From positions 3,435,478 through 3,499,477 of the forward strand of contig MU008158.1 of assembly GCA_010909165.1 (NCBI GenBank): a stretch of DNA of 64,000 nucleotides, in the 5' to 3' direction. Positions 16,111 through 43,562 of this stretch are shown piece by piece. Under the pieces are notes generated by a model. That model saw only the letters and a list, made by a program, of their open reading frames with translations. It ran no database searches and was not told the DNA's origin. The stretch is from Anthoceros angustus (Eukaryota > Plantae > Anthocerotophyta). A program made the translations under genes and the position numbers. The stretch's first letter is position 1; each line of letters opens with the position of its first letter.

Positions 16111-17461
16111 CCCACTGGCTTGCCTTGTCAAGTTGGTGCTTACGCATGCCCAGGCTGTTTGTATGAGCCCTACAAACAGCCCCACCAATTCACACGGGAA
16201 TCTGCAAACTTTTGGTTTCCCGGCCTGCGACCATGAAAACGCCTTGCGCCTTCATGGCGTATGGGGAACGAGGATCAGCCTCATATGAGCACACGCAACG
16301 ACATCTCGCTGTGAATTCCGCCTCAAAAACGTCGCGTCGCAGCGGGCCAGGCCGTACACCAAACTTGCACTTATACGGCTCTTCTCTGGCACTTCGTGTC
16401 TTCACGCTCGTTCGTGAGTTTTGACTTGACAACGCCTTTTAAAGCACCCCACAGACTTCCTTTGCAAGTCATTCTCACCTTGCCCGATTACCCTTGCTTT
16501 CTCCTCAGTATGTGCAGGGTATATTTTTTATGCCGCTCCTTTCGATTTCGCATGTATGTACTTTTCAACCTGCTGTTTCAATTACGTAAACACTTTTCAA
16601 TTTGACATGTATGGCTAACTTCTAGAATATTTTATTTATTTTTAAATTTTACTTATTATTAATCGATTTAATTTAATTTGATTTGATTATCAAAGTTGGT
16701 GTGTAGGAAGAAGAAAGTTTTTCCCTTCATATACTTATCACTCCTCTCATTACAATGTTGTAGGGTAATGCTGAATACGAAAGACGGCTCTGTGTTTGAA
16801 CCATAAGGCAAGGGCCTTTCGAGCTTGGCTTGAGGTGAATAACCTCAAAGGGATGCCAAGAATCTTCGAGCTCCTTGCTAGTATGCATACCCAAAAGTTG
16901 CAAAGTTTCTTTTGGTGCGAATGTATGTATTTTAGTGGGAAAAGTTGCAAAATTCTCTAAACTACACTGAACAAAGGATATATAGCCTATTCAATTTAAT
17001 TCAATTGAATAAAAGTGGTCTCATGCACACAACTCCCCTGACATTCGTTGATAGCTATTTAAATATATCCTTTGCAAGACATATCTTGTACATACAATTC
17101 TAGGTAGAACAGATCCCACATCTGTGGACATCCTAGTTCTCGAGATGGATTTTGAAAATTTTCACTTGTTAAACAATTCAAGATTTTAGAGAACAGCGTA
17201 TGAGTTGCAAGATATGCTAGCCCAATACGTTCGAATGATTAGTAAATAAATAATAAAGAGTAAATAGATCAATAAGCAGGAACAAAAAATGAGTGTTAGA
17301 TAGATTAGAAATTATGATGAATTAATAATGGTTAAGCGGGGTTTTGAGTTAAATATAAATTGAACATGTGTAATGGCCCTCATATACATTGCGTAATGGC
17401 GTGTCACTCAGGGCGGACCTTTTTTATACTAGGGGGAGTAAATTTACATCGCTAATGTGGT

Positions 17462-18982
17462 TGTCACGGATCCCACGAGAGACTCTATATGCGAGCACGT
17501 CATCATCAACCTCCTAGGCTGGGCGGCGGAAGGATGCGCAACCAGCAAGACTCACAAGTACTCTCCTATGTAAGACGGCCATGTTTTCATCCCCCTCGCC
17601 CTTGAGACTCATGAGGCTATGTGCAAGTACTTCTCTAGGTTAATTAATGAGTGTTCAAAAGCCTATCATAACCACAGGATTTGGAGGGGCCTCCCCCTTT
17701 TCTTTAATGGTGGCTTTCTTTCGCCGGGGGTTTCCATAGCTCTGCAGAAAGCGCTGGCTAACGCTGTTTATAGGACGGCTACGTACGCAGGACTAGCGGC
17801 TTCTTCGGCTCTGGTGGTAGGTAGGCCCTTATCATCCCTGATCACGATATCATTGGTGCAGTAGGTAGTTACGGGAAAGGCATTCGAGAGGACTAGGACT
17901 TTCCTTTTTACTATTAGCCCTTTTTGGGTTGTTGTGGAACATAAAAGTTTGGGCACTCCTATTTTTTGAATCAAAAAGGATCAAACTAGAGCAAAACTGG
18001 AGCAGAGCTGAAGCAAACGGGAGAAGTGGAAGAGAATTGTCAGAAGATCTTGAGGCAATTTGTTGGAGAATGAGGAGTAGAGGGTGAAGGCAACTAAGCC
18101 AAGGAAGTAGCTTGAGGTTGCTGCACAAGCAGCTGTTGATAGGCTTGCAGAGGCAAAGGCTTGATATTTGGGGACCACCACCAAGTTTGAGGGGAAGGCA
18201 AAGTAACTTGCCGCACGTGTGGAAGAAGTGAGACATGGGTAGGTGCTCATATTGCTGAGATTTTGCAGTAAGGAGGACTGTTAGGTAGAGATGTGTGGCA
18301 AGGGTTGCTGCAGGAAGATGGGCCAAGTGCCCGTAATAGTGGAATTGTGCATGATCTATTGCAGGGCTCTAGGTTGGGAGCTCAGCATGCGAGAGAGGAG
18401 CAGCAATCGGTGCAAGGATGGGAGCGAGGAGCTCATGTTCAGGGTGATCAGCCACAAGAGGAGGCCATGGCGGTGCCGAGGCACGTGGAAATGCTCTCCG
18501 TGGAGTCAAGATGTGAGGATGGCATGATAGGGCCATGTGTTGAACTAGGAAAGGCCGTGGTAGAGCACTCACGGCAGGCTGAATTTGTAGCTGGGCTGCA
18601 AGATGGAGGTGTGGCAAAACCACAGAAGGCGTGTGCGGTGGGGCAACATGGTGAAGGAATCACAACGGGGTGTGCATCATGACCGCAGAATTTGCAGTGG
18701 GGCTGCAAGTCAAAGTGAAGGGAGGCCGTTGTGGTGGCCGCGATGAGAATTGGGCAACAAGGAGGGTTGATACGAGATGTTGGTGAGGCGTGAGGAGTTC
18801 ACTAGGGAATAAGTCCAATTTATTCATATTGAGTGTTGCGCACAACCAACTTGGGTGTGTTGGACAATGAAGCCTAAGAACTCTAAAACACCCAACTGGA
18901 CAATGAAGACTAAGAACTCTAAAGTTAAGCACCCTAGGGGTAGATCAATGTTGAGATGGGGTGCCTTTTGTGTAAGGTGTTT
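17462..18982 (+). mobile_element. Old degenerate transposon-derived sequence (continues at 24198-24609 once the nested insertion is removed)
   Basis: Stop-riddled coiled-coil-like reading at ~17980-18250 (EVAAQAAVDRLAEAKA*...), a 36-bp repeat at ~18862-18925, and LTR-like words TGTCAC (17462) and GTGACA (24609) without a matching TSD. Confidence 0.45.
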
Positions 18983-21900
18983 TGTGGCACGACTTTCGCT
19001 GACGGCCAGCCAGGCGCGCACAATCCCGTGTCGTTGTAGGAAGGAGTCCGTTCCCAAGGGAATGATAGGCTCCGTTTGCCGCGTTTCAGACGATTCTTAC
19101 TTCACTTTGCGTCCGTTCAGTCTCAACGCACACATTCATCAGTTCGCATCTAACTACTCGCAACGTTCACCGCACAGGCCCGGTGTGGCCAAACGTTTAG
19201 GGACCCGTTCGCGTCCGTATCGTTCACGTTCGTCACTTGCACCTCTAGTCCGTTCTCTCTCACACTACACTCATCAGCCTTAGGGAAAAACGCGGGGGCT
19301 ACACAGTCCGGACCTCCTCCGTCGTTCTGCCGGGCCTCTCCGTCCGGGCTCTACACGCCCTCCCGGAGTTCCTCCGGCTCACACGTTCCGGTCCGTTCGG
19401 CCGGCTGCTGCGGACGAACACGGGTCCCCAGTCACCCTTCCTGCACACACCACCACACGTTAGGGTCCGTCACCAGAACCTTGATCAGTCTCTCCGGGTA
19501 TCGTGCACCTTTCGATGACTCGGGACTCACGTTAGCAAGAAGACGACAAGTGCGCAGAGCGGCATCAACACCAAGAGAAGATACTTTACTTAGGCGACCT
19601 CGGCCCTCTTATACTACGCCGAAGGTCGGCGCCTTTATTACACCCTATTACGGGCGGTGGCTCTAGGTTGGGAGCTCGGTCGCCCTAATCGGCCGCCTAC
19701 CATCCTATTCCTCCCCTCCTATCTCCTTCGTCGGCGGTGGGGCTGGGAAGGTCCCGGGTTCCGCCTCGGGATTGGTGGTCCAATCTCCCGGCGATTGCGG
19801 CGCAATCGGATGATCCGGCGGACCCCTTCCTCTTCCGGAATCACAGCCGGGTTGGGCTCGGCGGTCGGCGACCGTTACCTGTCGTCCCCACAGCCCCGGT
19901 GGGTCCCCTTCGGTGGGGGCCACCCTATGCTCCCCAGCGTAAGTCGGAGGGACTCCTCCTTACTTCTGAGTCGGACCTCGAGGTCCGGCCTCGACCCGAG
20001 TCGGAACTTGAGTCGCCCCTTAGTCGGTCTGGGTCCGGTCTCATCTGGGGTTCGGACCTCGGTCCGAACTTATTCAGTCCGGTCCCAAGCTCGGACCCCT
20101 TCGCGGACCTCTTACTGCTAGGTCCTCATCCCTTCCCACCGACCCTTGTCTTGGGTCGGTTTGGCTTCCTCCTTCCGCTCCCCCTTCAAGGCCGCCGCCT
20201 CTATCTTCCCGAGCAGGTTGCAGCGGACTTACCCTGGGATTCGTTGTATTGGCCGCGTCCTGCTCCTCCTGATGCTCTTCTCCCCCGCTACCGTCGTCTC
20301 CAAACAGGGCCACTAGAGTCCCCGTGCTGTCCCCATGCCCTTCATCCCCTTCTGAGCCTTCCAGGGGTCCGTCTATTTGTAGCGGGGAGGCTTCAATGCT
20401 TAAGGAGCTCGGCGTGGTAATAGGCAAAGTCCGAATCAACTTCTTTGGATTGCCTCTTCCACGTGTGCGGAGCACCGATACTCCCTTGGTGCTCGGGAGG
20501 TGGCGTCTTTGCCCCTTGTTGGACCACCTCCCTGCCGGGTTTGGGTGGGCGGGCCGTATCACGCGAGGCTACAAGCGCCTCGGTCACCTCACCGCTTGTT
20601 GTTGCTCACTTTGCTCCGGCTCCGTCGTTTCGCTCGTTGCTAGCTTACCGCCATAGCGCGCTCCTTCCGCCTTTCTTAAGCGGACGGCGGCTTCTTTTAC
20701 CGTCCAGTGCTCTCGCTCCTCCGTTCATTCTGGCCGTTAACTCCGCCATCTCCCTCTCCAGGCGGTCGGGCAACTCTGCCCGATTGCGGGCCTCGCCCAG
20801 GTCCTTCTCCATTTCGGCGACGTCCTGCTCCCTGTTCCATCGCCTTACTTCCTCCGTCCGCCAACAGAGCTGGAGCCGCTCTATTTCTCGTTCGTGATCC
20901 GCGATCACGCCCTGCAGATTACCATTCCTCTCAATGGTAACTTGGAGCTGCAGCTCCAGAGTCTCCTTGCGGTCTTCCATCTCCTGCCGCTGGCGCTCCA
21001 CCTCACGCAACTGAGACCGGAGATCCTCCATCTCCTTGCCGCGTGCTTCCTCCTCCTCGGCATGGCTGGCCCGTACCTGCTCCGCCGCCTCCTGCTCCTT
21101 CTTCAGGTTAGCCGCAGCTATCCCTGCCGTCTCCCTCCACCGGTTCCGATCACGCCGATAGTGATCACGATCGGTCTTAGCGGCGACCGCCTCCCCTTCA
21201 AGGCCCCGCCTCCTCGCCTCCTCCTTGGCGTTAGTCGGTAAGGCCGCCTCCGCCAGGTCACGAGCCTTCTCCGCTTGCGCCCGGGCCTCCTCTGCCTCCT
21301 GCTGCGCTACTCCTCTCCGCCTGCAGAGGTCTTCAGCCCGTGCTTGGGCCTCCTCTGTGCTGTTGCTCACCCGGTGAAGGAATTTAGTCAGTCTGTCGGA
21401 TGGACGGACTTCCCTCTCGGCCTCCTGCGTTTCCCTTCTTGATGCGGCCGAGCTTGGCCTCCTCCTTGCCTCTGGGCCGCCTCCAACCGCCTCCTCGGAG
21501 GAGCACCATCGCCTCGGGTGGCTTCTACTTCACAGGTCTTCTCGGCATCCCGAGACCCCAAAGCATACCGTCCATGACGGTAGCTGTGACCCCGTGTTTC
21601 TTCCACGGCCGCCACCGTGAGACCCCACAAAGTCCGTAGTGGGAGGCGGGCATTTCACGGTCCGCCAAGGACCTCCATACATGATCCGGAGTAAGTCGGG
21701 GGTTCTCGGACCTAATCGGGGCCCTTAGGTCTGAGTCTTGGCTCGAGCTTCACCCTCCTTGGCCCTCTTGGCGTTCCTTATTTGCCCTCTTCGTCACAGG
21801 GCTCGGAGGGTGAGGGGTCGGGAGCTAGCCCTTTTGCCCTCTTCGTCACAGGGCTCGGAGGGTGAGGGGTCGGCCCCCACCTCGGGCGCCCGCTCGATCT

Positions 21901-24192
21901 CTCCCTCCTTGGCGGCGTCCCTTCGCCCTCCTTACGCCTCTTGACCTCTTGCCACTCAGGTGGGCGGGGGAGACGAGCCGTCCCGAGGTCTTTGCGTTGT
22001 AGCATCTTGCGCCTCTTCGGTTCCCGAGTCCGGGCAACTCTGCCCGTGCGGGCCTCTGGGCCGCCTCCTCGCCTCCGCTCATTCCGCCGCCTCCTCGTTC
22101 CCTCCTGCTGCGTTGATTGCTCCGGAGGAGGCACCAGGAGAAGGGAAGCGGGGATTTCTTCCCATACTTCCCTGGGTGGTGAGGGGGTCCGTTCCAGACG
22201 TATGGAGTCCGGAATCCCTCGATCGTCCTCCTCCGGGTCCGTTTGGCCTTAGGGGTGGCCCCCACCTCGGGCGCCCTTGCACGCCTCCGCTTCCTCCGGC
22301 CGGGCGCCGCTCGATCTCTCCCTCCTTGAGCTCGAAATGTCCCCATACATGGATCGGTATGGGGCGGTCCAATGAGGCTTCTCGCTCCTCGGCTGCGGGC
22401 CTCTGGGCGCAGGCGAAGATAATCCTTCCCAGTCGCCCTCTTCCCAGCGCGCATGCGGGAACACCAACAAATTATCACCAAGGTGATCCACCTTGGTGAG
22501 CAAGTTCCAATGGACAATAATCGGGCTCGGCCTTACTCGGCATCCGGCGGTCGATATCAACCACCGTTGGTTGTCCTGCGTTCGAGCCTCGGCATCCTTG
22601 TTGCGGCCCTATCTTTCCCTTCGCCTTGAGGGGCTCTGGGACTACGCCCCCATCTTCCTCCTTTGGGCGGTTGTAGGCCGCCCTCAGGACCTCCAAGGTC
22701 CATCGCCTGAGATCCTCCCGGAGGTTCTTGGACCGAACCTCCTTGTTGGCCGCCAACATCTTCCGGGCGAACTCCCGGACGGTGACATCAAGCGTCCGAC
22801 TGGAACACGTCTAAGTGCCACTCCTCGACTAATCCTCCCGCTTCCTCCAGCCAGGGCCCAAAGTCCGGATAGCGCCGGGTCACAATGTTGCGCTCTACGG
22901 GTTCCATGGCTCCCGGACCTCCGCAGCCTTTTGGGTGCCATCGCCTTCTTCTCCCCCCTTCTTTGGCGCTGGCGGCGGAGTCGCGGCACGATCGCCCTCT
23001 TCCCCTAGCATGCGGGAACACCGGCAAATTATCACCAAGGTGATCCACCTTGGTGAGCGTGTTCCAATGGACAATGATCAGACTCTGACCCTTACTCGGT
23101 ATCCGGCGGTCGATATCAACCGGCCGTTGGTTGTCCTGCGTTCGAGCCTCGGCATCGCCCTGCGGCCTCTATCTTTCGCCTTGAGGGGCTGCGGGACTCG
23201 CCCCCATCTTCCTCCTTTGGGCGGTTGTAGGCCGCCTCGGGACCTCAAGGTCCATCGCCTGGGATCCTCCCGGAGGTTCTTGGACCGAACCTCCTTGTTG
23301 GCCGCCGCCAACATCTTCCGGGCGAACTCCCGGACCAGAGTGACACTGTCAAACGTCCAGACAGCCTGGAACACGTCTAAGTGCCACTCCTCGACTAATC
23401 CTCCCGCTTCCTCCAGCCAGGGCCCAAAGTCCGGATAGCGCCGGGTCACAATGTTGCGCTCTACCAGGTTCCATGGCTCCCAGACCTCCGCAGCCTTTTT
23501 GGGTGCCATCGCCTTCTTCTCCCTTCGTTGCTGTAGCTGCTGGCCGGAGTCCGCTGGCACGATGCGCCCTCTTCGCCGCGTTCGCTGCTCCAACCCCGAC
23601 GGTGAGCCGCGAAGATGCTGGCGTTCAAAGAGATAGCGCCAGAGAGCCGGGTTGCGGGCGCAAGCTGCGAGGTGTCTCGAGGCGCGGGACCTCCTCGTCG
23701 GCGCCGTTGGAAGTAACCGGGGCGGAAGGCGCCTCTTCCACTGTCGTAGCGCGATGCGCGCACTCGACCTTACGCCCGCTTACTCGACCTTACGCGCGTA
23801 CTGCGGCCTTCGCCGCGGCGTGAATACCGCTATAACGGCCTCCGCCGCCCGGCCTCGCTGCATGCCCGACCTCCACTCAGGGCCGTCCACGTGGCGCCGC
23901 TAAGTCTGTCCTCACGACTCAACTTCTAAGTTACTTTCCCTGGCGTACTTATCCTGTTTTGACCCGGAGTGGGGTCCGGACTTATCCCGTTACACCGGGC
24001 GTGGTCCGGATCTCGCCATAGTGGTACCGGGGTCCGTTACCCACTCCGGAGTCCGATGTATACTCCGGAGTCCAGTCCGGAGCGCCATCCGTGCTTATTC
24101 CTGCTGTTCCGCCTTATTTTACTATTCCAACCTACCAAAAAAAACTAAACCCCACCTAATTCCTACCCCCCAAGGGAAGTCCATAGTCCACA
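18983..24192 (-). mobile_element. Copy A (5210 bp) of a TG...CA-bounded, ORF-carrying element (putative giant solo LTR)
   Basis: Ends TGTGG (18983) and CCACA (24192), flanked by the TSD TGTTT (18978-18982 / 24193-24197). Homologous end to end, in inverted orientation, to 25577-30343. Frameshifted ORF starts MAPKKAAEVWEPW at ~23509. Confidence 0.9.
22451..23575. repeat. ~557-bp internal tandem duplication in copy A covering the ORF start and N-terminal domain
   Basis: GCATGCGGGAACACC...AAATTATCACCAAGG recurs at 22451 and 23008. Both units encode VERNIVTRRYPDFGPWLEEAGGLVEEWHLDVFQ. Confidence 0.85.
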
Positions 24193-24211
24193 TGTTTCAA
24201 CTTGTTATATT

Positions 24212-24387
24212 TGCAGAAGTCACATGGGAGCTAATTGGGAGAGTGTTTAGGTGGTGCAGAAGTCACATGGGAGCTAATTGGGAGAGTGTTTAGGTGGTGC
24301 AGAAGTCACATGGGAGCTAATTGGGAGAGTGTTTAGGTGGTGCACAAGTCACATGGGAGCTAATTGGGAGAGTGTTTAGGTGGTGCA
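24212..24387. repeat. 43-bp minisatellite x4
   Basis: AGAAGTCACATGGGAGCTAATTGGGAGAGTGTTTAGGTGGTGC at 24215, 24258, 24301 and 24344 (last copy with one mismatch). Confidence 0.95.
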
Positions 24388-26280
24388 CCCTACGCAGAGC
24401 AGGTACATGGACAGGTTAAGGTGACAAGGGTGACCCTATATAAGTAGGGCAGGGGTCCCTGCATGTACGTATGTGGGTAGGACGACACCTTGTAGGTAGT
24501 AAGTAGGGAGTAAGTAGGGGGAGCGCTTTACATGTGGACGGGTAGAGACATGTAGGACGTAGGGAGTGGAGAGGTCTCCCTACGTGGGCAGCGGAAGTGG
24601 GGTGTGACACCCTACTTGGATACCTTGGGAAGCAAATTTTCCATATTAGGCAGGTTCCAACCTAGGAAGTTGCTAAAGAGGATTGCATATGCAAGGTACA
24701 AACCTAGGAAGTTGTTAAAAAGGACGGTATAAATAGAATATATTAGAAATAATAGAACATAAATATGTAAGGTAGGTAGTGTAGGGTGCTTTTAACATGT
24801 AGGGCTGCTAAATAGAGGACGGTGGAAATGGTGCCACATGGCAAGGAATCAACGGCCTATATCAAGGAGTTTCACTGTCACTACCAAGGGCCATGCAAGC
24901 TGGGTGTGTAGGGAGTAGCACCCGGGAAGCCTGCGAGGAATCGCGAGGAAGAGCTTGTGCATGCAAAGGGAAGCTAGGGCAAGGACTTGGTGAGAACGCG
25001 GTGCTCATGTGTGTGCAAGGAGAAGGAAGGATGGGCCTTGGAGAATAGAGGGATGCGAGAACAAGTCCGACAATTGGTGTATGCCGTGGCGATGGCCAAG
25101 AAGGATGTAAAGGAGGTCCAGGGCCTTGCGAAGACTAAGGATGACTTATTAAATGGTAAGGACCTCGAGGTAGGAGAATTGAGAAGGGAGAAGGAGACCC
25201 TACAAGAGTCATGGGACTCCCTCCAAACAGAGTTAGAAGAAGCCAAGGGGGCTATGAGTGAAGCTAATCGTAAGGCCTCACAAGAGGAAGAGAGTCGCAA
25301 GAAAGCTGAAGACATGGTACGTCGCTTGATGGTTGTGCGCAAGAGAAGGTTCAGAGCCGATCATGCCTTGCAAAAGAGGATGTTGAGGCGCGTCCATGAT
25401 ACGGAGAAGAAGTATCACGCTATGTCCATACAAGTGGGGCAGTTGGCTATGGAAAGGGAGGCTTTGCAAGTGAAGTGTGGGACGGGCGAGTGGCCTGCAG
25501 ACTTGGAAGATTTGAAGAACAAATATCGCAACCTACAGGTTAATTCGGCCAATAGACTGGCTAGGATCAAGGCTGATGTGGACCACAGATCCTCCCCGGG
25601 GGTAGGGAATGAGTTAGTTTTTGTTTTTTTTCGTAGGTAGGGAGTGCAAAATAAGGCGGAAAGGAAGAAATAAGCCCGAACTACTCCGGACTGTACTCCA
25701 GACTGCACCCCGGAGTAAGGACTCCGGAGTAGGTGGAAGGACTTCGAAGCACACTTAGGAGGAGGACCGGACAACGCACCGGAGTATTGGGATAAGTCCG
25801 GGCCACACTCCGTGGCAGGACGGGATAAGTACGCCAAGTAAAGTAACTTAGAAGTTGGAGCGTGATTTAGGCACGGCCACGTGGGCGGTCGAGTGGTGGC
25901 GGGCATGTAGCGGACCCAGACCTTGAGTTGCCAGGCGGGGTCCGGTATTCACGCCCGTACAGTTTGCGTGAGGCTTAGAGTATCGTGGCGAAACTTAGAG
26001 TAAGCGGCGTAAGGGCGGTGGCGGGCGTAAGGTGGGAGTAGGCCATGCGACCTCAGCGATTCTGGCGGGACACCCTTCCGCCTCCGCGACTACTCCCGAC
26101 GCCGCAACCTCGGAGGAAGACCATTTCTCTTTGCGACCTGCAACGATTTTCGCGGCTCGCCGCCATGGCGCTATCTCTTGGCGCTGGTACCTTCTCGCAG
26201 CTCACCTTCGTGGTTGGGCGGCGCGGGAGAAGAGGAGCGGAGCGGATTGCGCCGAGCGGCGGAGCAAGAAGAAGGCGGTG

Positions 26281-29200
26281 ATGGGACCCAAGAAGGCCGG
26301 GAGGTGTGGGAGCCTTGGCGCCTAGTGGAGCGCAACATTGTCACCCGGCGATACCCCGACTTCGGACCCTGGCTGGAGGAGGCAGAGGACTTGGTAGAGA
26401 AGTGGCATCTTGACATCTTCAGCGCGGTGTGGACGTTCGACAGTGTCACACTCGTCAGGGAATACGCCAAGAAGATGCTGGCCGTCGCCAACAAGGAGGT
26501 CCGCTCCAAAAGTTTGAGGGAGGACCCCAGGAGGTGGACCGTGGAGGTCCTGAGGGCGATTTACAACCGCCCGGCAGAAGAAATTGGGGGCGTAGTCCCG
26601 GAGCCCCTCAAGGTGAGAGGAAAGGTAGAAGCGGCGAAGGCGGCGCTATTGCGACCAGGGACGCAGCGGTCGTCAAACGGCTGGCTGATGTCGGACCTGC
26701 TGGACAGACGGGTGAGGGCAGTGGCTAAGGTCATTGTCCATTGGAACATGCTCACCAAGGTGGATCACCTTGGTGATAATCTTTTGGTGTTCCTGCACGC
26801 CCTACAGCGGGGCAAACGGGCCGACCGGGGGCGTATCATCCTCGCCCGAATCAGTCAAGAGGCGAGAAGCCGCCTCCGTCGGCGATGTCCCCCTTCCTAA
26901 TCCATGTGTGGGGATACCTCAACCTCCTGAAAGAGGGAGAAGAGGAGCGGGCGCTCCGGAAAGGATTGGCGGCCTTGCCGGAGGCAGAGCGGGAAGGGGC
27001 GAAGGCACCCGAGGCGGAGGCCCGACCTCCTAAGACCAAACGAGCCTGGGAGGAAGATGACTGGGAGGGAATTCCGGACTCCATCCGGCTGGAACGGACC
27101 CCCTCGCCGCCCCGAGAGGTATGGGAGGATATCCCTGCCTCCCTCCTTCTGGTTCCGAAGGCGGAGTTGCCCGCACCAAACGGAGCACCCACGGGAGGAG
27201 GCGGCGTTGGCAACGCCCGCCACCGAGAAACCGCCATGTGAGCACGCCAAGCGAGTTGTCAAGAGGTGGAAGGTGGCACCCACCAACGAAGCACCAAGAA
27301 GCGCACCAGTGCCTCTACCCTTGCCACCGAGTGGCGGAGGCGAAGAAGGCGGAGGCGGAGAGAGACGCCGCCTGTGGGCGGGATCACCGCGCAGCCCACA
27401 TCCGGAGCTCCGCCCCTCCTCCGACGGGAGGGGAAAGCAGCGGACTCCGGACCCCTCGCCACCAAGCCCAAAACGAAGACGGCGATGAGCCAGCGCCAAA
27501 CGGGCCAAGGAGGTAGAAGGCGGACCAGGCATCCAGGACATGAGGGTCTGATCGGTCCCGAGGCGAGTCCGGACTCACCGGATCTGCAGCGGTCCTTGAC
27601 GGACCGGGAGATGCCCGCCTCGCCGACCGGGTATCTCCTCAGCACCGTGGAAGAAACACGGCGAGTTTTGGCTACCGTCATGGACGGTATGCTTTGGGGT
27701 CTCTGCGGGATGGCAGAGAAGACCCAGAGGTGGAGGCAACAAGGAGGCACATGGTGCTCCTCCAGGAGGAGGTGGAGGCGGCCCAGGAGGCGAAGAAGAA
27801 GGCGGAATCCCTCGCTCGAATCGAGGAGGGAAAACGCCGTGAAGCAGAGCGGGAGGTCCGGTCTATTCAGCAAGACCTGACCAAGGTCCTTCAGCTGTGT
27901 GAACAGCTGAAGCAGGCACAAGAGGCCCAAGCTCGGGCAGAAGACCTCAACAAGCGACGGGAAGCGGCGTAGGGGGAGCTGGAGGAAGCCCGAGAGCAGG
28001 CGGAGCGGGCTCGAGACCTGGCTGAGGCGGCTAGGTAGGAACAACGCCAAGCCGCGGAGGCTCAGGTGAAGGCGGCGCGTGAGGCGGAAGCCGCAGCTAA
28101 GACCGACCGAGATCACTATCGGCGGGATCGCAACCTGGAGGAGGCAACAAGGAGGCGGCCAACCTAAAGGAAGGAGGCCGGAGCAGTGCACGGGCCACCG
28201 AAGAGAAGGAGGCCAGCAACAAGGAGATGGAGGATCTCCGGGCTCAGTTGCGGGGAGTGGAGGAACATCGGCAGGAGATGGAAGACCGCAAGGAGACCTA
28301 GGAGCTACAGCTCCAAGATACAATTGAGCGGAGCGGGGCTCTGCGGGGCGTGATCGTGGATCACGAGCAGGAGATAGAGCGACTCCAGCTCTGTTGGCGG
28401 GCAGAAGAGGTAAGGCGGTGGAACAAGGAGCAGACCGTCGCCGAAATGGAGAGGGACCTGGACGAAGCACGAAATCGGGCAGAGCTGCCGGACCGCCTGG
28501 GAAGGGAGATGGCGGAGCTTCAGGCCAAAATGAACGGAGAAGCAAGGGCCTTGGACGCAGAAAAGAAGCTGCTGGTCCAGTTGAGGAAGGCGGAGGGAGC
28601 CGCGTCCTGGCGGGAAAGTTGGCGTGAGCGGAGAAGAAGGCGGAGGCGGAGGGAGCACGGAGGTTGCAGGAAGTATGAGCGCCTTGTGGCCTCGCGATCT
28701 GCCTCGGCCCACCGGTGACAAACTGGCAGGAGAGACGGACCGGAGTCGAGACCGGACCACTCTCGACCGGAGCACCTATGGCGAAGGGAGTATCGGGTGC
28801 TCCGGGCGCATGTGGAGGAGGCAATCCAACAAATCGACTCGGATGTTGCCTACTACCACGCTGAGCTTCTCAAGGCGTTGGAAGCTTCACTCATAATCGA
28901 CCAGACCCTCGGAAGGGTCGAGGAGTGGAAGGGGAAGAAGGGCATGGGGACAGCGCTGGGGCCTTGGTGGCCTTGTTTGGTGATAAGGGCAGCGGTGAAG
29001 AGGAGCCCCAGGAGGAGCAGGACACGGCCAATGTAACGGACCTTGAGGTAAGTCCGTCGCAACCAGCCAGGGGGGATAAGGATGAGGGCCCCGAAAGATG
29101 TGGGGAGGCAGGAAACCAACCGGACCCAAGCCAGGGAAGGGACCGGTGAGTGAGGACGGGCCCCTAACAGTAGGCGGTCCGGGGATTGGGGGTCCGGAAC

Positions 29201-29601
29201 TTGAGGACCGGACCCTGGTAATAAGGTCGGACCTTGAGGTCCGGACTCTGGAAATAAGACCGACTCCTGAAGATCGGACCCCGGAGTCGAGACCGGACCC
29301 CGAGGTCCGGACTCAGGAGGAGGGAGGGAGTCAGCCCCGACGTGCTCAGGAGGAGCCGTCAACTAGTGGCCTTACAAGGCATGGACCCACTCGAAGGACG
29401 GGAGAAGAGGATGTGGTGGTTACCGTGGTCGTCCAACCGCCACCGGTAGCCCAACCCGACAGGATATCGGGAAGGGGAAGGGGTCCCACCTCGCGGATCA
29501 TCCGATTGGGTGCGCCGCAGCAGTCAGGGCAAGGAGTGGGGCCATCGGCGCCGAGGCGGAACCAAGGGCATCCCCAGGCCCACCGTCGACGACGGAGATA
29601 G
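26281..29601 (+). CDS. Element-encoded ~1100-aa protein (frameshifted in this assembly): globular N-terminal domain, Pro/Glu-rich linker, long coiled coil, low-complexity tail
   Basis: Consecutive ORF fragments, each mirrored in copy A: VWEPWRLVERNIVTRRYPDFGPWLEE...SVTLVREY...DPRRWTVEVLRAIYNRP...MSPFLIHVWGYLNLL; DHEQEIERLQLCWRAEEVRRWN; IDSDVAYYHAELLKAL. Stop at 29599-29601. Confidence 0.7.
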
Positions 29602-29673
29602 GGGGAGGGGCGTAAGATGGTAGGCGGCCGATTAGGGCACACTGAGCTGGCCACCCGCTCAGAATAGGAGTGT

Positions 29674-29704
29674 AATAAAGGCACCGACCTTGGGCGTAGT
29701 ATAA
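29674..29704 (+). promoter_or_regulatory. AATAAA followed by a TATA-like box, conserved in both element copies
   Basis: TGTAATAAAGGCACCGACCTTGGGCGTAGTATAAGAG in copy B; reverse complement GTGTAATAAAGGCGCCGACCTTCGGCGTAGTATAAGAG at ~19606-19643 in copy A. Confidence 0.55.
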
Positions 29705-30697
29705 GAGAGCTGAGGCTGCTCTAGTAAAGTATCTTTCTTTTGGTGCTGATGCCGCGTTCTCTTGCAGACCCTTGTGCGTCTTCTTGATAGCGTGAGTCCT
29801 GTGTCACTGAGCAGGCACGACAGCCCCGGAGAGACTGATCAAGGTGCTGGTGACGGACCCTAACGTGTGGTAGTGTGTGCAGGGAAGAGCGATCAGGGAC
29901 CCTTGCTCGTCCCGAGCAGCGGCCCACCGTCGGACGGACCGGAACGTGTGAGCCGGAGGAACTCCGGAAGGGCGTGTAGAGCCCGGACGGAGAGGCTGGG
30001 TGAGCGAGGAGGTCCGCTGACCACCCGCGTTTTTCCCCAAGGACGATGAGTGTAGTGAGAGTGGTGAGAGGAACGGACTAGAGGAACGAGTGACAAACTT
30101 GAATGATACGGACGCGAACGGTCCTTAAACGTTTGGCCACGCCGAGCCTGTTCGGTGAACGTTACGGGTAGTTAGTCGTAAAACGATGAATGTGTGTGTT
30201 GAGTCTGAAACGGTCACTGCGTGAGGTGAGAAACGATTGGAACGTGGCAAACGGAGCCTATCATTCTCTTGGGAACGGACCCCTTACTACAACGACACGG
30301 GATTGTGTGCGCCCGGCTCGCCGTCAGCGAAAGTCACGCCACAGCTGATCTTGGTAGAGCTTTGAGGGAGAGGTTGACACCCCCCCACAATGATGATAGA
30401 AAGACGCTAGAAGCAGAAGGTTTGAAGGCTGCGGACCTTGTGACCCAAGCAGAGATGGTGGAGTCGATGAGTCGGAATGGGAAGAAATGAATGAGCAAGC
30501 CGTAGAGGATGACTCGGAGGGGGAAGAGGAAGGCATGGAGCAAGATCCGCTCACGGGAGAATTAGTTTTGCTTGAGGGAATTTTAAGTATATATATGTTC
30601 AATTTTATTATGAAGTATGGATCACTTAAGTTCACTTTCCAATATCTTTGTTTCAAATATGATTTGTATCCAAATATCTAATAATACTTCTTGAATA

Positions 30698-31040
30698 CCG
30701 TACCCAGAGGAGTGGTTCAATAGGATAATGCCGAAATAATTATTAAAAAAAAGGTTCAACATAAATATTTATATGTTTCAAAATTTTAATATTTACAAAA
30801 AATAATTTTATCAAAATTCAAAATTTATTAAAATACATAGGCATATATATAAAACTAATGGATATGTATAGACCTCCCCTAAATATGCCCTAATTTTCCA
30901 CACAAACCCTAGTTTCCTTATTTTTGGCATAATAAATTCATAAAGTTTTACCTATTCAACATTTTAAGTATAATAATTTCTGGATTTTCAACTTTTACTA
31001 ATTCTAATTAATTAACGCCGAATCACCCCTTGGGGTACGG
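30698..31040. mobile_element. AT-rich MITE (343 bp), Tc1/mariner-like, TA target duplication
   Basis: Imperfect 21-bp TIRs CCGTACCCAGAGGAGTGGTTC / GAATCACCCCTTGGGGTACGG (17/21 match), each flanked by TA. Very AT-rich non-coding interior. Confidence 0.75.
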
Positions 31041-31302
31041 TACTTCAGAATTCCGAAACGCTGAATTAAGTAAGAATCTTCAAACCTAGCTTAAGTAGCT
31101 CTTTAATATTATTTCTTTTCAAAATCAAAAGGTCTATGTTGTGTCTATCTTGCGCCGGAAGTACCTACTCTGGTTATGGCAACAGATCTAGAAATATTCC
31201 GTAAGTAGGTACTTAAGAATCACCAAACCCTAAATACTTAAGAATCCCCAAACTTGACTTTAATAGCTCTCTAAGGTTGTTTTGGTTGGAAAATAGGTCT
31301 AT

Positions 31303-31903
31303 AGTAACGGCACTGGTGAAATAAGGTAGAAAGGTGAAAAGTTGAAAAAGGTAAAAAGCTAAGTTAGTAGCTGCCCTGTTTAGAAGATGCATGTGTTGCA
31401 TGCTCATGCAATCTCTTGTTAGAGAGGAATTGCTACGCCACAAATGAAGAGCTGCCTAGAGAGGACTCTTAGTGATTAGTGGTCCGTAAGAATCCCTAGA
31501 TTTAACAGCTGCCTAGTTAAGGTCAGTGTGGATATATAAGGGCTAGAGCAAGGGCTTTGAGGAACAAGTTACAAGTGGGACTCACTCTTTGAGAGAGCGA
31601 GCAAGTGTCACTGCAAGCCTTGTGTTGAGAGAGGCTGGAGAGCTAGCTAGTGAGCTTGTCATGGAATCAAGGGCGAGCTGGGCGTAGATAGCCGATTCCA
31701 TCGTTGTATTCTTGTAATAAAGAGCGGCACCTCGAGGAGGTGGCTGCGAGTCGTCGATGGACGGCGGGCTACTTGGAGCCTAGTCGTGTTGTGAGGTTGA
31801 GAGCGTTGAGAATCGTGCAAGTCTCTTGTGGAGTGAATTGGCGAGGTCCTAGACTGGGAAGCCGACTTGGCTTCCTTCTTGGGCTGCGGTGAGGGGTGTT
31901 ACT
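31303..31903 (+). repeat. 5' LTR (601 bp)
   Basis: Starts AGTAAC, ends GTTACT. TATA (GATATATAAG) at ~31531 and AATAAA at ~31716. Near-identical to 36421-37019. Confidence 0.95.
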
Positions 31904-31956
31904 TGAGTGGTATCAGAGCGTAGTCCATTCCTCCGAGTGACTAGAGAGTGCACAAG

Positions 31957-34900
31957 ATGGTCAATGAGAAGCGTAAGGAGAGGCTGAAGAAGCGGCTCCG
32001 ATCATCCGCCTCAACCAAGATTCATCATCGTCGGAACAAGAGGAAGTGAGAGCGCCGAGAGCACAGCCCATCGAGAGAAGTCGGAGGGAAGAAGCGGATG
32101 GTGGAAGTACTTTATCAAGTTCTTCCGGTGTCTTGGACGATGTAATGACTTCAAGGAAGAAGACAAAGCGAATCCAGCCCACACTCAACAAGGCGAAGAT
32201 GCGGAAGAACAACAAGAAATCTTCCGGAATTAGCATCTTCAAAGTGGCTCAAATCGAGCATGAAGCTAGCCCTACCGGATAAGTATGAGGGAGAAAGAGA
32301 TCTGCAAGTCATTGATTCTTGGATCTATTCTATTGAGACTTATCTCGCCTCATCTGGTGTTGAGCCGGAGTACTACTTAGGTACTGTTGGCAATTTCTTA
32401 AAGGGCTATGCTTTGGTCTGGTGGCGAAGTTATGGTGCTAATGTTGCCCAGGGTAACCGAGCACATACCATCACAGACTGGGCATCCTTCAAAGAAGCCC
32501 TCAAGAAGCAGTTCCAACCTGCGAATGCTTCGCGTCTAAGTAGACAGCAGCTTGACAATATCAAGCAAACAGGTACTGTACGAGATTATGTAAGTACCTT
32601 CAGTGAAGCTGTCATGCACTGCACTACCATGAGTGAAGATGACAAACTGCATCGCTTCATGGCTGGTTTGAAGGATTGGGCTGCTAACAGAATTGAGTTG
32701 CATAGTCCAACTACATTGGCAGAGGCCATTACAGCAGCAGATGCCATCCAGATACTTTCCATTCTAGTACATCCAACTCCTCCAGAAGATTTCGAGGCAG
32801 TACCCGTGGTCGGTATGCCCAGACTAGAGGAAGCTCTAGTAGTGCCGCAGAGGAGCTGCTAAGGACACTGGCGGAAATGGAATTGCAAGAGGCAATTCAA
32901 GAGGAAATTTCATGAAGAAATCGAGGAGCAGAGGCCGCGGAGCTCAGAGAACAGTCAGTATGGGTTCTCGAAAAGGAGTATGCTACTCATGTGGAGAGCC
33001 GGGACATTATGCAAATGAATGCCCGAATGCTGAACAAACTCTCAACGTAGCAGAAGGAGATCCACAGCCCCGAAGACTCAGGATTACGGAAGTGGTCGGA
33101 TCCGAGGATCCCAAATGACGGATCGGCCACATGCGAAGGCGCATGTGGTGAGTCTCAGTCTTGAGGGCACTATTCGGAGGCGGGTGGAGAGCTCATGTAC
33201 ATACATGGATGTATAAATGGAGCGAGCGAGGATGTTGCTTGACTTAGCAACAACACATAATTTCATTTCTCCTAGCAAGGCAAGCAAGCTTGGTTTGACA
33301 TGGGCTAGTACATCTGAGCCATGTAGAGTGAAACAAGCTAAAGGAATGCGCAACACAAAGGTGAATTGCAAGAAGTGCCGTTGCGGATAGGGAATTGGAA
33401 TGGAGCGGTGAGCTTCATTGTAGATATGGATGATCATGAAATCATCTTGGGCTTAGAATGGATGAAGGCCAACAAGGTATGTGTGAACGTGGACTCACGC
33501 ACCATACAGATCTTAGGAGATGAAGAGCACAAAGTGAGTTGTGCGTTCTCAAGCGAGGCTTGGAGACAACATTGATGATATCATCTCTAAGAAAAGCTCA
33601 AATGTTGTGTAAAGGATGGAGAGGAACTCTTTTACTTGTCTGCAAGGACTAGAAGATGGTCTTGAGATGGAGTCTCGAGCGAAAGATTCCAAGGAAGTGC
33701 GTCTTGAATGAGTTCAAGGACTTGATGCCCGATGAGTTGCCTCCTTTACCTCCTAGAAGAATTGTAGATCATGAGATTGATCTCAAGCCGTGAAGTACAC
33801 CGCCTTCAAGAGCGCCATATAGATTATCGCAGGATGAGCTACAAGAGTCAAGAGACAGATGTCTAACACCTAGCCAAGGGCTATGTGAGAATCTCAAAGT
33901 CCCCATTTGGTGCGCCTGTTGTTCACGCAAGAAGAATGGAGGATTGAGATTATGCTTGGATTACGAGCACTCAATCGATAATGTGAAGAATTCTTATCCT
34001 TTGCCAAGGATGGATGACTTGTTTGTGATTGAGAGGTGCTAAGTATTTCACCAAGCTGGATCTAATGGCAGGCTATTACCAGATTCGCATCGCAGAAGGA
34101 CATGAATACAAGACGCTTGTAGAACAAGGTATGGATCTTTTGAGTTCCTTGTCATGCCATTTGGACTCACTAATGCACCAGCCACGTTTCAGACTCTCAT
34201 GAATACTATATTCGAGATCATGGATGAGTGTGTTGTGATATACTTGGATGACATCATGATATACAGTTCTACCTTGGAAGAGCATGTCCAACACTTGAGG
34301 AAAGTGTTAGAAAGGTTAAGAGCAAATTCTTTGTTCTTAGCTATAACAAAGTGTGACTTTGTTAAGGAAGAGATAGACTTCCTAGGATTCATTGTCTCGG
34401 ATGGTATCGGGATGGATCCCGATAAGGTAAAGGCCATACTGAGTTGGCTGCCACGAATGTGCACGAGGTGCGTATGTTTTGGGATTGGCTAGCGTGTACA
34501 GAAGATTTGTACCGATGTTTGCCAAGATTGCTGCCCCATTAACGATCTCTTGAAGAAGGCGAAGGCTTGGAAGTGGGATGATGAATGTCGAGGGCATTCG
34601 AGTTCAAGTTGAAACTCAGACTACCCAGATTGGCAATCTATGATCCAAAGAAGGATATAGAAGTATATCGATCGTCGGATATTGCAATTGGCGGAGTGCT
34701 CATGCAAGAAGGTAGGCCGGTGGCTTACGAATCAAGGAAGTTGCATGAACATGAAAGGAAGTACCCACTTATGAAAAGGAGATGATCATCATCAATTGTC
34801 TCAAGATTTGGAGACATTATCTTCTAGGAAGATCTTTTGTCGTACAGACAATGTAAGCACGAGCTTCTTTACAAATCATGCGACTAAGCGCAAGACAAAG

Positions 34901-36400
34901 CTAGATGGCAAGATTTCCTAGCAATGTATGATGTGTCTATCAAGTACAAGCCGGGAAGGAGAATCTCGTGGCGGATGCTTTGAGTCGCAAGCGAGTTTAA
35001 GTTTGATAAGCTCGAAGAGGCCTAAGCTAGCGCAACACGATGGTGATTGAGCCAAGGACACTCACACGCATCAAGGAAGCTTATCTGCGAGATCCATTAA
35101 TCGATTGGATCAATGAAGTGGAGCAACCGGATCTAAGTTTAAGCTTAGAAATGGCTTGTTGATGTTCAAGCAAAAGCAGATTGTGATTCCCGATTCTCAT
35201 GTGTTGAGAAGGAAGTTGCTTGCAGTGTCATGATGTGCCAAGTGCAGTCATAGAGGAATTGACCCAACTTATGAGAAGTTGAGAAAGGCTTTTATTGGCT
35301 GGAATGTACAAGCATCTTGAGTATGTTAAGTCTTGTGTAGATCGCCAGGATAAGGTGGAGCAGACAAATCCGAGGTTTGTTGCAACCCCCCTATTCCAAG
35401 TGGGCCTTGGAAAAGTATATCAATGGATTTCATTATGCCATTGCCACCAAGAATGGACACACTATCATGACGGTGGTTGATAGATTCAAGCAAGCACACT
35501 TCATCCCTACAAAGAAGCGGTGAAAGCTTAAAGTTGCTCGATTGTTCAAGAAGCATGTATATGTGTTACATGGACGCCTATGCATTGTGAGTGAGAGATC
35601 CCAGTTCTGCGAGTTTTGGCAACTTATGAAGAGCTTAGGAGTGCAATTATGTATGAGCACGGTACCACCACCACGGATGGATCAACAGAGAGGGTGAAGA
35701 ATCCAAGAAGAATACTTACGACACTATGCGGATGGACCGGTGACGGAGTAATCATCTTGAGGATGCAATTTTGTTATAATAACATACATAGCTCCACGGC
35801 TACACACCTTTTCGGATGACAGTAACGAAGCAATGGACGTAGTTTCCATGTTGAATGCTAGCGTGTTGAGACAGCGAGAGAACCACGTGAATTCATTGAG
35901 CGATTAAGGGCGGGCATGAAGTTGCTAAGAAGATATTGGCCAAGGCTCGGGGCAGCAAAAGAAGTTTCTTGGCACAGCAAGAGGCGAGTTTCAAGTAGGA
36001 GACAAGGTGTGGGTGAAATTGAAGAATTTCCCACTACCACAAGGTGACCTCAAAGTTAAGGCCTAAGTATGGAGGACCTTTCGTAGTTCAAGCGCATTGG
36101 AAATGTGGCTTACAAACTACTGAATGGATCTTCTCTCATAATGTGTTTCATGTCTCTTTCTTTGAAACCATTTGTGATTTCGAAGAGAATGAAGATATGA
36201 ACAGAAGGATTATGTCATCCCGGTTCAACACAATCATGGTCTGCGGAGATTGTTGAATTCTGGCAGAGAGAAGTGCCTCTGTCGTGGTAATGTACCAGTA
36301 TCAGGCTTCGTGGTTATGCAGATCCTGCGGGTTTCACTTGAAGATGTGCAACAAGGATCATGGATGATCTCGCGTTACCGGAGGTCATTGAGGACAATGA
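31957..36400 (+). pseudogene. gag-pol polyprotein, heavily frameshifted in this sequence
   Basis: Gag (LPDKYEG...WASFKEALKKQF...IKQTGTVRDY), zinc knuckle CYSCGEPGHYANEC (~32980), protease remnant (LLD..THNFIS), RT (MPFGLTNAPATFQ, YLDDIMIYS), RNase H (IGGVLMQEGRPVAYESRKL), integrase (TDGSTERV, KLRPKYGGPF). Order PR-RT-RH-INT is Ty3/gypsy. Confidence 0.9.
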
Positions 36401-36420
36401 CATCTTCCGATGGGGGAGAG

Positions 36421-37019
36421 AGTAACGACCGTGAAATAAGGTAGAAAGGTGAAAAGTTGAAAAGGTAAAAGCTAAGTTAGTAGGCGCCTGTTAAGAAGAT
36501 GCATGTGTTGCATGCTTCATGCAATCTCTTGTTAGAGAGGAATTGCTACCACAAATGAAGAGCTGCCTAGAGAGGACTCTTAGTGATTAGTGGTGTAAGA
36601 ATCCCTAGATTTAACTGCCTAGTTAAGGTCATGCGGGATATATAAGGGCTAGAGCAAGGGCTTTGAGGAACAAGTTACAAGTGGGACTCACTCTTTGAGA
36701 GAGCGAGCAAGTGTCTTGTTGCAAGCCTGTGTTGAGAGAGGCGTGGAGAGCTAGCTAGTGAGCTTGTCATGGAATCAAGGCGTGCTTGATTGGGCGTAGA
36801 TAGCCGATTCCATCGTTGTATTCTTATAATAAAGAGCAGCACCTCGAGGAGGTGGCTGCAGTCGTCGATGGGCGGGCTACTTGGAGCCTAGTCCGTGTCG
36901 TGAGGTTGAGGCGTTGAGAATCGTGCAAGTCTCTTGTGGAGTGAATTGGCGAGGTCCTAGACCGCTGGGAAGCCAGCACTTGACGCTTCCTTACTGGCTG
37001 CCCAGTGAGGGGTGTTACT
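36421..37019 (+). repeat. 3' LTR (599 bp)
   Basis: Starts AGTAAC directly after the PPT and ends GTTACT, followed by the TSD TCTAT. Confidence 0.95.
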
Positions 37020-37918
37020 TCTATGGTGATATGAGGGTGCCGGAACTATGCCTCATTTAACTACCTTTACTTGGAGTTGTGCCGCCGGCATAACTGCAGC
37101 TGAACCGGCCACCCATCTTTGAGTCCACATGTGTGTATTCCATAGCTATCATGAGCGGATACTGCATAGCCAATTCTGCAACAAAATGGCACAACTTACA
37201 AAATGTTATTAGACGACGTGCTCCTCGGATGCCTACAAAGAAATTGGATTGCAGCAAGCCTTTGATCGCTGGTTGGGGCGGCGAATTGGCACAGGCGATA
37301 GGCCTACCTAGCCCTGGACACATGAAACTGACGTCTGTTTAGTGTGTTCGTTGTGTGAAACCCTCTGAAGTGGATGCCGTGAACAAACGGTTCTGGCTAG
37401 ATCGCCAGTCGCGAAGATGCACCTCTTTGAGCTCGCCTTGCAACGTTTCCGTGGATGGCCTTCTTCCACAGGTGGTGGCTGTGAATTGTGCAAGTGTTGG
37501 ATCCATTCAGGCAGTGTCCCGTGCCTTACGAATGCACTTGATGTCTCTGCCTGTTTTCCTTGCAGGTATGGAGGGTAGACCACAAGATCGCAAACGTCTG
37601 CAAGGGAGAAGGATAGCAGCCGCGGTTGCGCTGCATTGCTTTCGCTTTATTGCCTGCATTGTACAGCCAGACTCTTCTTGTGCCCTTAGCGTACTAAGCC
37701 TTTCCACCATGAACCGGGCTGGAAGGCAGCAACTGCAAGCTGCGCTACGCCGTGCTTCTCATTCCCAGGCCTCGCAGCAAGTCCCCTGCCGGAGCTATGG
37801 TGAGGCGTCGGTCCTGATGGATGTGCCGGAACTCTCCTGGCCTTGTTGGTTCTCTAACATACAGGGTCTACATGAGTTTATCATCTTTAATCTTGTGTGA
37901 TTGTACTCTCTCTTCTAG

Positions 37919-43000: not shown

Positions 43001-43562
43001 GCACTGTGAACCTACAGGCCTTCTCCTCGTGCCCTCCTAATTTCCCACCTGGACCCAGCTCTGTCTCCTGCAATCCCCATGTTAGCTCGGCTATGTAGCT
43101 CACCACCCGCTCTTGCTTGTGTGCGGGAATTGGGTTGCTCGCAATTGTGGCAGCTCAGCGTCGCGACATGTAGATCCTTTCCTTACGCCTTCCTCTCAGC
43201 CTCAACTCTAGGTTGGCGCACCCCCGCCGGCTCTGTTTGCTAACACTGCTAACTTCTGACGTTGAAATTCTTTCCTCTTCTCTTTTGCCAGCAGAGGCTA
43301 CTTACCGCCGTAGCTTATTTCTTGCTCTCTCGTAATTTACCGCCCACCTCGATTCTTTGCCCGCAATTAGACTACCTAGCGCTAGCTTATTTGTTGCTTC
43401 TACCTGGCAGGACAGTAGCGGTGTCACCCCAGTGCCCCCCTGCACAATGGCCTTGCGTTCCACGGATCCCTTAGTGGTCGGGAGGGTCATAGGAGATGTG
43501 ATTGACCTTTTTGTGCCCTCTGTGAGTATGTCCGTGCACTACAGCATGAGGCAGGTGAACAA
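40034..43562. repeat. ~1.76 kb head-to-tail tandem duplication (40034-41792 / 41793-43557) of the MFT promoter, 5' region and start of exon 1
   Basis: Near-identical copies. The junction at 41793 uses AACAA microhomology (CAGC-AACAA-CTCC versus GGTG-AACAA-TGGC). Confidence 0.95.
41887..41897. promoter_or_regulatory. G-box/ABRE-like (GCCACGTGG) upstream of MFT; duplicate at ~40128, further CACGTG at ~42371 and ~40611
   Basis: Motif match, with a TATA-like CTATAAGG at ~42695. ABA regulation of MFT genes is established in seed plants; function here is inferred. Confidence 0.4.

Follow-up and report, generated by a model that had tools for sequence, protein, structure and literature searches.

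Purifying selection on an orphan open reading frame that probably lies within a 4.8-kb long terminal repeat in Anthoceros angustus

Two repeat units in the hornwort Anthoceros angustus, here called copy A and copy B, share a long open reading frame (ORF), and one short block of it differs between the two copies only at silent positions. Does this block reflect selection on a protein, and if so, what kind of element carried the gene and where within that element did it reside? Both copies are found in the window, a stretch of 64,000 nucleotides of contig MU008158.1. The ORF as read in copy B, its conserved parts and an internal duplication in copy A are listed below.

26281..29149, plus strand: ~950-codon accessory ORF in copy B, interrupted by in-frame TAG stops and frameshifts; may extend to ~29600
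26281..26930, plus strand: N-terminal domain, ~210 residues, the most conserved part of the ORF; predicted to be all-helical with low confidence, no homologue found
26331..26384, plus strand: 18-codon block, with counterparts at 23405-23458 and 22839-22892 on the minus strand
27071..27165, plus strand: conserved 31-residue acidic, proline-rich motif within a gappy low-complexity linker
27917..28557, plus strand: long helical, coiled-coil-like region (counterpart in copy A at 20648-21357)
28828..29132, plus strand: C-terminal motif and acidic tail, conserved (p 0.03 and 0.005)
22433..23577, minus strand: tandem duplication in copy A of ~560 bp of the N-terminal domain, with 10-bp microhomology at the junction

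The two copies have a start codon in common, at position 26281 in copy B and 23509 in copy A. Comparison of 26331-26384 with the reverse complement of 23405-23458 identified eight differences in 18 codons, all of them synonymous third positions, such that the 18-residue peptide is identical. The codon pairs named in the initial annotation (GTC/GTG, CGA/CGC, TAC/TAT, CCC/CCG, TTC/TTT, GGA/GGG, GAG/GAA, GCA/GCG) match exactly. A third copy of the block, at 22839-22892 (minus strand, inside copy A), shows the same eight differences from copy B and owes its existence to the ~560-bp tandem duplication (22433-23577).

To compare the two copies over the rest of the ORF, reading frames were set beforehand by taking the longest one open in a single copy, and codon counts were restricted to ungapped blocks of 24 nt or longer; the comparison consists of copies A and B only. 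In the fixed frame the N-terminal domain (121 codons, no stops) displayed a dS of 1.07 and a dN of 0.12, giving an omega of 0.115 with kappa 1 (bootstrap 0.05-0.19) or 0.167 with kappa 3 (0.09-0.27), and its mismatches were distributed 21/14/44 over the three codon positions. With the 18-codon block removed (103 codons) omega was 0.135 (kappa 1) or 0.20 (kappa 3), and when the domain of copy B was compared with the second repeat unit of copy A it was 0.16 or 0.22. The coiled coil (179 codons, two stops) gave 0.21 (kappa 1) or 0.28 (kappa 3). For the N-terminal domain and the coiled coil, four of the five other frames returned omega values of 0.96-1.85 (kappa 1), and the antisense frame sharing the same third positions returned 0.36-0.39. 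In the control regions omega was 0.64-1.08 over all six frames of the upstream head and 0.68-1.02 in five frames of the 3′ region.

A frame-free test was then applied to every ungapped block of 36 nt or more (28 in total), with the best of six frames scored against 200 permutations. Seven of the 15 blocks within 26281-29250 were significant (p<=0.03), every one on the sense strand, compared to none of the 13 blocks elsewhere. The selection signal is thus on the sense strand and limited to 26300-29132. This test also bore out the protein-level conservation that had been proposed for two further blocks (EIERLQLCWR.EEVRRWN and DSD.AYYHAELLK). The acidic motif at 27071..27165 contains 14.5 synonymous and 4.5 non-synonymous differences (p 0.005). 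An antisense frame of 536 codons (27259-28869) was considered as a gene and rejected, as antisense frames were never the best in any significant block.

The remaining frame of the 3′ region is an exception to the otherwise neutral controls. It is a sense frame of 189 codons with 11 stops, in which omega was 0.46-0.56 (Fisher p 0.02, uncorrected). This weak synonymous bias is found at 29805-30125, within the supposed R-U5, and no single block of it was significant in the permutation test of ungapped blocks. The bias counts against a clean non-coding reading of the 3′ region, where a small extra exon or ORF may be present.

Maximum likelihood gave an omega of 0.08 over 361 codons, in agreement with the direction of the fixed-frame result; the fixed-frame estimates are preferred because the blocks used had been pre-selected as significant and the N-terminal domain is saturated. 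Decay and assembly errors would push omega upwards, and the estimates are therefore conservative. Methylation bias was rejected as the source of the pattern: transition frequencies are 0.21 at CG, 0.22 at CHG and 0.19 in other contexts, and such near-equality leaves it unable to account for the synonymous differences. The initial annotation had held that a dN/dS near 1 over the full alignment would mark the block as a chance sample. The values obtained were 0.12-0.28, and the 18-codon block is no chance sample. Taken together, the fixed-frame, block-permutation and maximum likelihood analyses support the earlier proposal that purifying selection acted on the protein during divergence of two subfamilies. 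Selection of this kind on a retrotransposon accessory ORF is, by itself, ordinary and expected.

In-frame TAG stops occur in two of the significant blocks of copy B where copy A has sense codons, indicating that the gene of copy B is probably truly dead. We infer that selection operated while the lineages were still active and that copy B has decayed since. The frameshifts call for more caution. The paired LTRs of a neighbouring gypsy element (31316-31904 versus 36431-37020) differ by 26 indels and nine substitutions, and the two copies of a 1.76-kb duplication (40034-43562) by 15 indels and three substitutions. This large excess of indels over substitutions in recent repeat pairs suggests long-read consensus errors, and frameshifts in repeats of the window may be unreal. 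The 1.76-kb tandem duplication itself is 99% identical and resembles the 5′ part of a gene; it could be real or an assembly artefact.

The element that carried the ORF was sought in the boundaries of the two copies. Each is a discrete unit flanked by a short duplication.

25577..30343, plus strand: copy B, 4,767-bp unit, likely solo LTR, with TG...CA ends, a 5-bp terminal inverted repeat and no LTR pair inside
25572..25576, plus strand: GCTGA, target-site duplication on the left of copy B (repeated on the right at 30344-30348)
18983..24192, minus strand: copy A, a unit of 5,210 bp with the same ends, inverted relative to copy B; likely a solo LTR from a sister subfamily
24193..24197, plus strand: TGTTT, target-site duplication of copy A (its partner is at 18978-18982)

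Both units start with TGTGG and finish with CCACA, and in a self-comparison the inverted copies align end to end, with an identity of 73-86% depending on the sub-region (about 20% divergence). The chance of one 5-bp duplication match is ~1e-3. The GCTGA duplication is corroborated by an older ORF that copy B interrupted, which stays in frame past the site for 47 more codons. The TG...CA ends and target-site duplications bear out the transposable-element setting assumed in the initial annotation. The older ORF (24978-25576 and 30344-30560) encodes a coiled coil with an acidic tail; its layout resembles that of the ORF studied here, no sequence similarity between the two was detected by tblastn, and it is possibly the accessory gene of another family. 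Adjoining the end of copy A are four near-identical 43-bp tandem repeats (24212-24383).

Within each unit, comparison of the two ends over 300 bp and over 800 bp revealed no direct or inverted similarity above shuffled sequences; extending it to 1,500 bp gave a marginal score in copy B only (32 versus a maximum of 29 in 30 shuffles). The frames of the units that were scanned contained no match to gag, protease, RT, integrase or transposase families, Rfam returned no match in 17000-32500, and no related loci were found in viral contigs. A metagenome stretch (one of 73) sharing an 11-residue match, with nothing further similar, was rejected as chance. TG...CA ends combined with a 5-bp duplication and absence of an inner LTR pair are the signature of a solo LTR. 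Copies A and B were rejected as the paired LTRs of one element, being inverted, ~20% diverged and flanked by separate duplications.

These observations make it quite probable that the gene is located inside an LTR, in whichever orientation. With somewhat less assurance, we favour a model of one large LTR retrotransposon with two subfamilies, represented here by the solo LTRs A and B, each of which would have a protein-conserved gene of ~950 codons wholly in U3. The LTR identity of the units is indirect, because two copies were compared and the full-length parent element was not seen. According to PMC6317226, plant LTRs reach about 5 kb in non-chromoviruses and target-site duplications are 4 or 5 bp; copy B falls at the upper end of that length range. 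The representative hornwort Tat LTRs listed in PMC10508981 measure 356-1,484 nt, a size mismatch with the 4.8-kb unit.

The same boundaries could instead delimit a mobile element in its own right, a non-autonomous one moved by cut-and-paste or by an integrase, with very short inverted ends of the Ginger-like kind and the ORF as its sole gene. Both copies are complete and bear target-site duplications, they lack any retrotransposon domain, and the unseen parent element fits this view as well. The inverted repeats, however, measure just 5 bp and inverted similarity does not extend beyond them, whereas DNA transposons usually require longer repeats. Long terminal inverted repeats and a transposase, by which a TIR DNA transposon is recognised, were both absent from the frames and ends scanned. 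Moreover, TG...CA ends with a 5-bp duplication are the standard signature of plant LTRs, and the neighbouring gypsy element also made a 5-bp duplication. We consider a self-mobile unit unlikely. That neighbour (31303-37019) is a full-length Ty3/gypsy element with LTRs at 31303-31903 and 36421-37019 whose ends read AGT...ACT rather than TG...CA; it has a TCTAT duplication, a Met-type PBS four bases past the LTR, a PPT, and gag and RT matches.

If the units are solo LTRs, their internal anatomy should indicate how the gene is placed relative to the signals of the element. Candidate signals are as follows.

25577..26280, plus strand: non-coding head of ~700 bp without codon signal, candidate promoter of the gene
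29151..29330, plus strand: purine tract, TG, then a cluster of 33-bp imperfect GGACC/TCCGGA repeats
29671..29707, plus strand: AATAAA (29674) and TATA-like GTATAAGAG (29699), identical in copy A (19631, 19606)
29725..30343, plus strand: likely R-U5, a candidate assignment

The head is rich in TCCGGA. It has the motif GGGATAAGT twice, starting at 25789 and at 25822, followed by CCACGTGG at 25877; copy A shares these motifs. The best conserved stretch of the units is 29661-30343 (86% identity between copies A and B, compared to 73-82% elsewhere). Here AATAAA at 29674 may act as the poly(A) signal for the gene, and GTATAAGAG at 29699 may be the main LTR promoter; canonical TATA[AT]A is absent from both copies. 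Under the solo-LTR reading, the whole gene would fall in U3, upstream of the conserved TATA-like box. A 12-mer around the AATAAA of both copies recurs at 10813-10824 (minus strand), ~400 bp downstream of the likely last BCAS3-like frame, and could be the poly(A) signal of that gene. Host gene pieces elsewhere in the window match BOP1NT, cyclin, BCAS3 and alpha/beta hydrolase (3354-3842, 7567-8046, 11224-15381 and 58413-58901). An intronless gene with a MACPF domain (CAD1-like) is located at 59872-61947 (minus strand); its protein is 58% identical to that of Diphasiastrum, 57% to Marchantia and 56% to Selaginella moellendorffii, the best named matches, and 74% to an unnamed protein. These values indicate a seed-free land plant with scant coverage in protein databases, which a hornwort would fit.

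As the units are flanked directly by target-site duplications, no PBS or PPT is available as a guide to orientation, and placing the unit on the strand of the gene depends on one imperfect TATA-like motif. TG...CA reads the same either way. The solo LTRs could thus run in the opposite direction, with the gene antisense to the element like the accessory ORFs of Retand and Grande, yet within the LTR. Antisense accessory ORFs with Smc-like coiled coils are described as common in Retand (PMC11963269, PMC7264820). Against this orientation, the sole TATA-like motif common to both copies is on the strand of the gene, ~640 bp from the end, and no conserved TATA-like motif was seen on the opposite strand of the 700-bp head. 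We regard the opposite orientation as quite unlikely.

In both copies a purine tract and then TG lie where the ORF ends, which raises a further alternative. Here the ORF was an ordinary internal accessory gene located after pol and before the 3′ LTR, and the unit arose from such an element by deletion; it would consist of a stub of the 5′ end, the ORF, the polypurine tract and a 3′ LTR of 1.2 kb starting at ~29151. The interval after pol and before the 3′ LTR is the commonest site of plant accessory ORFs (PMC7264820). The head of copy B is also weakly similar to the repeat zone at 29250-29325 (local score 32 versus a shuffled maximum of 29 in 30 shuffles). This similarity is not seen in copy A, however, and replication needs a repeat at both ends, of which the unit has none. 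Furthermore, copies A and B are ~20% diverged, share both boundaries and have separate duplications, which argues that the unit integrated twice as such. A deletion origin of the two copies is accordingly improbable, to much the same extent as the reversed orientation. The scheme is more tenable as an explanation for the origin of the long LTR: speculatively, 29151..29330 may be a vestige of an older, shorter LTR start, the LTR having grown upstream over a 3′ accessory gene.

To investigate what the gene of these putative solo LTRs encodes, the conserved regions were modelled and searched for homologues. An AlphaFold model of the frame of copy A places residues 11-188 of the coiled coil in one helix (178 residues, mean pLDDT 85). 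The acidic tail has a net charge of -11 across 90 residues. The N-terminal domain model has a pLDDT of 44, and a Foldseek search with it gave no match at E<=0.001 among 102 viral and 228 PDB candidates, an uninformative outcome. Basic runs in the linker derive from frames that are possibly shifted. Eight open pieces that together span most of the ORF contained no transmembrane segment of the kind an Env-like ORF would have (best 19-residue hydropathy 0.94).

Homology searches were conducted with the N-terminal domain; the coiled coil was scanned against Pfam alone, where it gave weak, sub-threshold coiled-coil matches. The N-terminal domain matched no Pfam family at E<=10, a result that covers the plant mobile domain and Athila profiles proposed for it at the outset (PF03078, PF20167, PF04195 and PF10536 were each without a match at this threshold). 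The spacing of its motifs may resemble that in Athila ORF1/Transposase_32, for which the Pfam profile test was negative. A word-index search of longer proteins yielded no hit at E<=0.01 among 3,557 candidates, an alignment search none at E<=1 among 7,996, phmmer none at E<=0.001 over 1.84 billion representatives, and PDB sequences none at E<=10. Two ESM Atlas queries returned no usable match (recognition 1883, under the 2300 mark). The resemblance to bryophyte accessory proteins that had been suggested for the N-terminal domain thus found no support in Pfam, the 1.84 billion representatives, the word-index searches or the ESM Atlas. Transposon ORFs are often missing from protein sets, and these blanks are therefore weak.

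The absence of a cellular homologue of the N-terminal domain in these searches bears on whether selection acted at the level of the host, on a domesticated or captured cellular coiled-coil gene. The low omega would fit such a gene, and long coiled coils are common in cellular proteins, as the sub-threshold Pfam matches illustrate. Both copies, however, lie between element ends amid a nest of repeats, copy B has stops opposite sense codons of copy A, and copy A carries an internal duplication. Selection on a host gene is very improbable.

These results suggest a sequence of events for the favoured solo-LTR model. The units would have been inserted by a retroviral-type integrase as full-length elements, which were later cut down to solo LTRs by recombination. 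If the TATA-like box at 29699 is the main promoter, the last 620 bp would be R-U5; the 700-bp head may hold the gene's own promoter, and AATAAA at 29674 may serve as its poly(A) signal. The protein would oligomerise via its long coiled coil, the orphan N-terminal domain may bind DNA of the element, chromatin or RNA, and the accessory factor may promote transcription of the element or escape from silencing. By analogy with described accessory proteins, we tentatively propose that the product is non-enzymatic and probably nuclear, a coiled-coil oligomer whose N-terminal domain would bind element DNA, chromatin or RNA and so aid transcription or silencing escape. A broader scenario is more doubtful still. 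In it, a retrotransposon of a seed-free plant would have relocated an accessory gene of 950 codons, representing a new family, entirely into the LTR along with the promoter and poly(A) signal of the gene; each element would then carry two copies, and solo LTRs would keep a self-contained gene able to act in trans on full-length elements.

Selection on plant accessory ORFs is known; the interesting point is that a 4.8-kb LTR probably houses an orphan gene of 950 codons. Plant genomes delete retrotransposons mainly through the formation of solo LTRs, which are regarded as non-coding scars. If an accessory gene resides in U3 with its own promoter, deletion by LTR recombination would leave the gene behind. 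Annotation that seeks extra ORFs in the internal region could then miss this class. The locus would also provide a test case for the long-open role of plant retrotransposon accessory proteins, in a lineage seemingly without a described one.

In the literature searched, which was mostly open-access and of incomplete coverage, no case of a plant ORF inside an LTR was found; in PMC5408684 the phrase is used in another sense, and the accessible parts of PMC13468544 do not address it. Very long LTRs do occur among plant Ty3/gypsy OTA elements (PMC6317226, PMC11963269 and PMC13547354). The accessory ORFs of this group include Athila ORF1 (PF03078, PF20167), Retand TRP28 (PF04195) with its Smc-like region, and the Ogre plant mobile domain (PF10536). 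They are, like the ORF studied here, long, non-enzymatic and conserved, with a globular domain and a coiled coil; Retand has TRP28 and Smc ORFs (PMC11963269), and the Grande accessory protein is nuclear, with its gene under its own promoter (PMC7264820). In these accounts the OTA accessory ORFs are internal to the element, placed either after an LTR and before gag or after pol and before the 3′ LTR, whereas the ORF here is apparently within the LTR, and its N-terminal domain differs from the OTA accessory families in having no Pfam match at E<=10.

The Tekay ORF0 or 5′ aORF (rice Retrosat2, RIRE3 and RIRE8; sunflower Tekay group 2) is likewise an orphan ORF under purifying selection in elements with LTRs >3 kb and many solo LTRs. 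For rice ORF0, PMC3485330 reports a Ka of 0.26 and a Ks of 1.65; the sunflower 5′ ORF has disordered regions and a long helix and is kept in 500 of 523 Tekay elements (PMC11728184). In these papers ORF0 is described as upstream of gag-pol, separate from the LTR, in grass and sunflower hosts, and the likeness is one of description, not of sequence. The arrangement proposed here is paralleled by MMTV sag/naf, an ORF that, like a promoter of its own, is located in U3 (PMC9412291). MMTV is a vertebrate retrovirus and the product a superantigen; the arrangement is the only parallel, and homology is not implied.

A further comparison is with the VANC anti-silencing proteins of Arabidopsis VANDAL, transposon accessory proteins predicted to oligomerise through a coiled coil (PMC13547354). 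VANC belongs to a dicot-specific DNA transposon and its function is demonstrated, whereas the role of the hornwort ORF, to which no similarity was detected, is a tentative proposal. Extended coiled coils are predicted to assemble the proteins of both Athila and VANC into pentamers (PMC13547354). A transcription-promoting or anti-silencing role has been argued for the accessory proteins of Retand, Athila and VANC.
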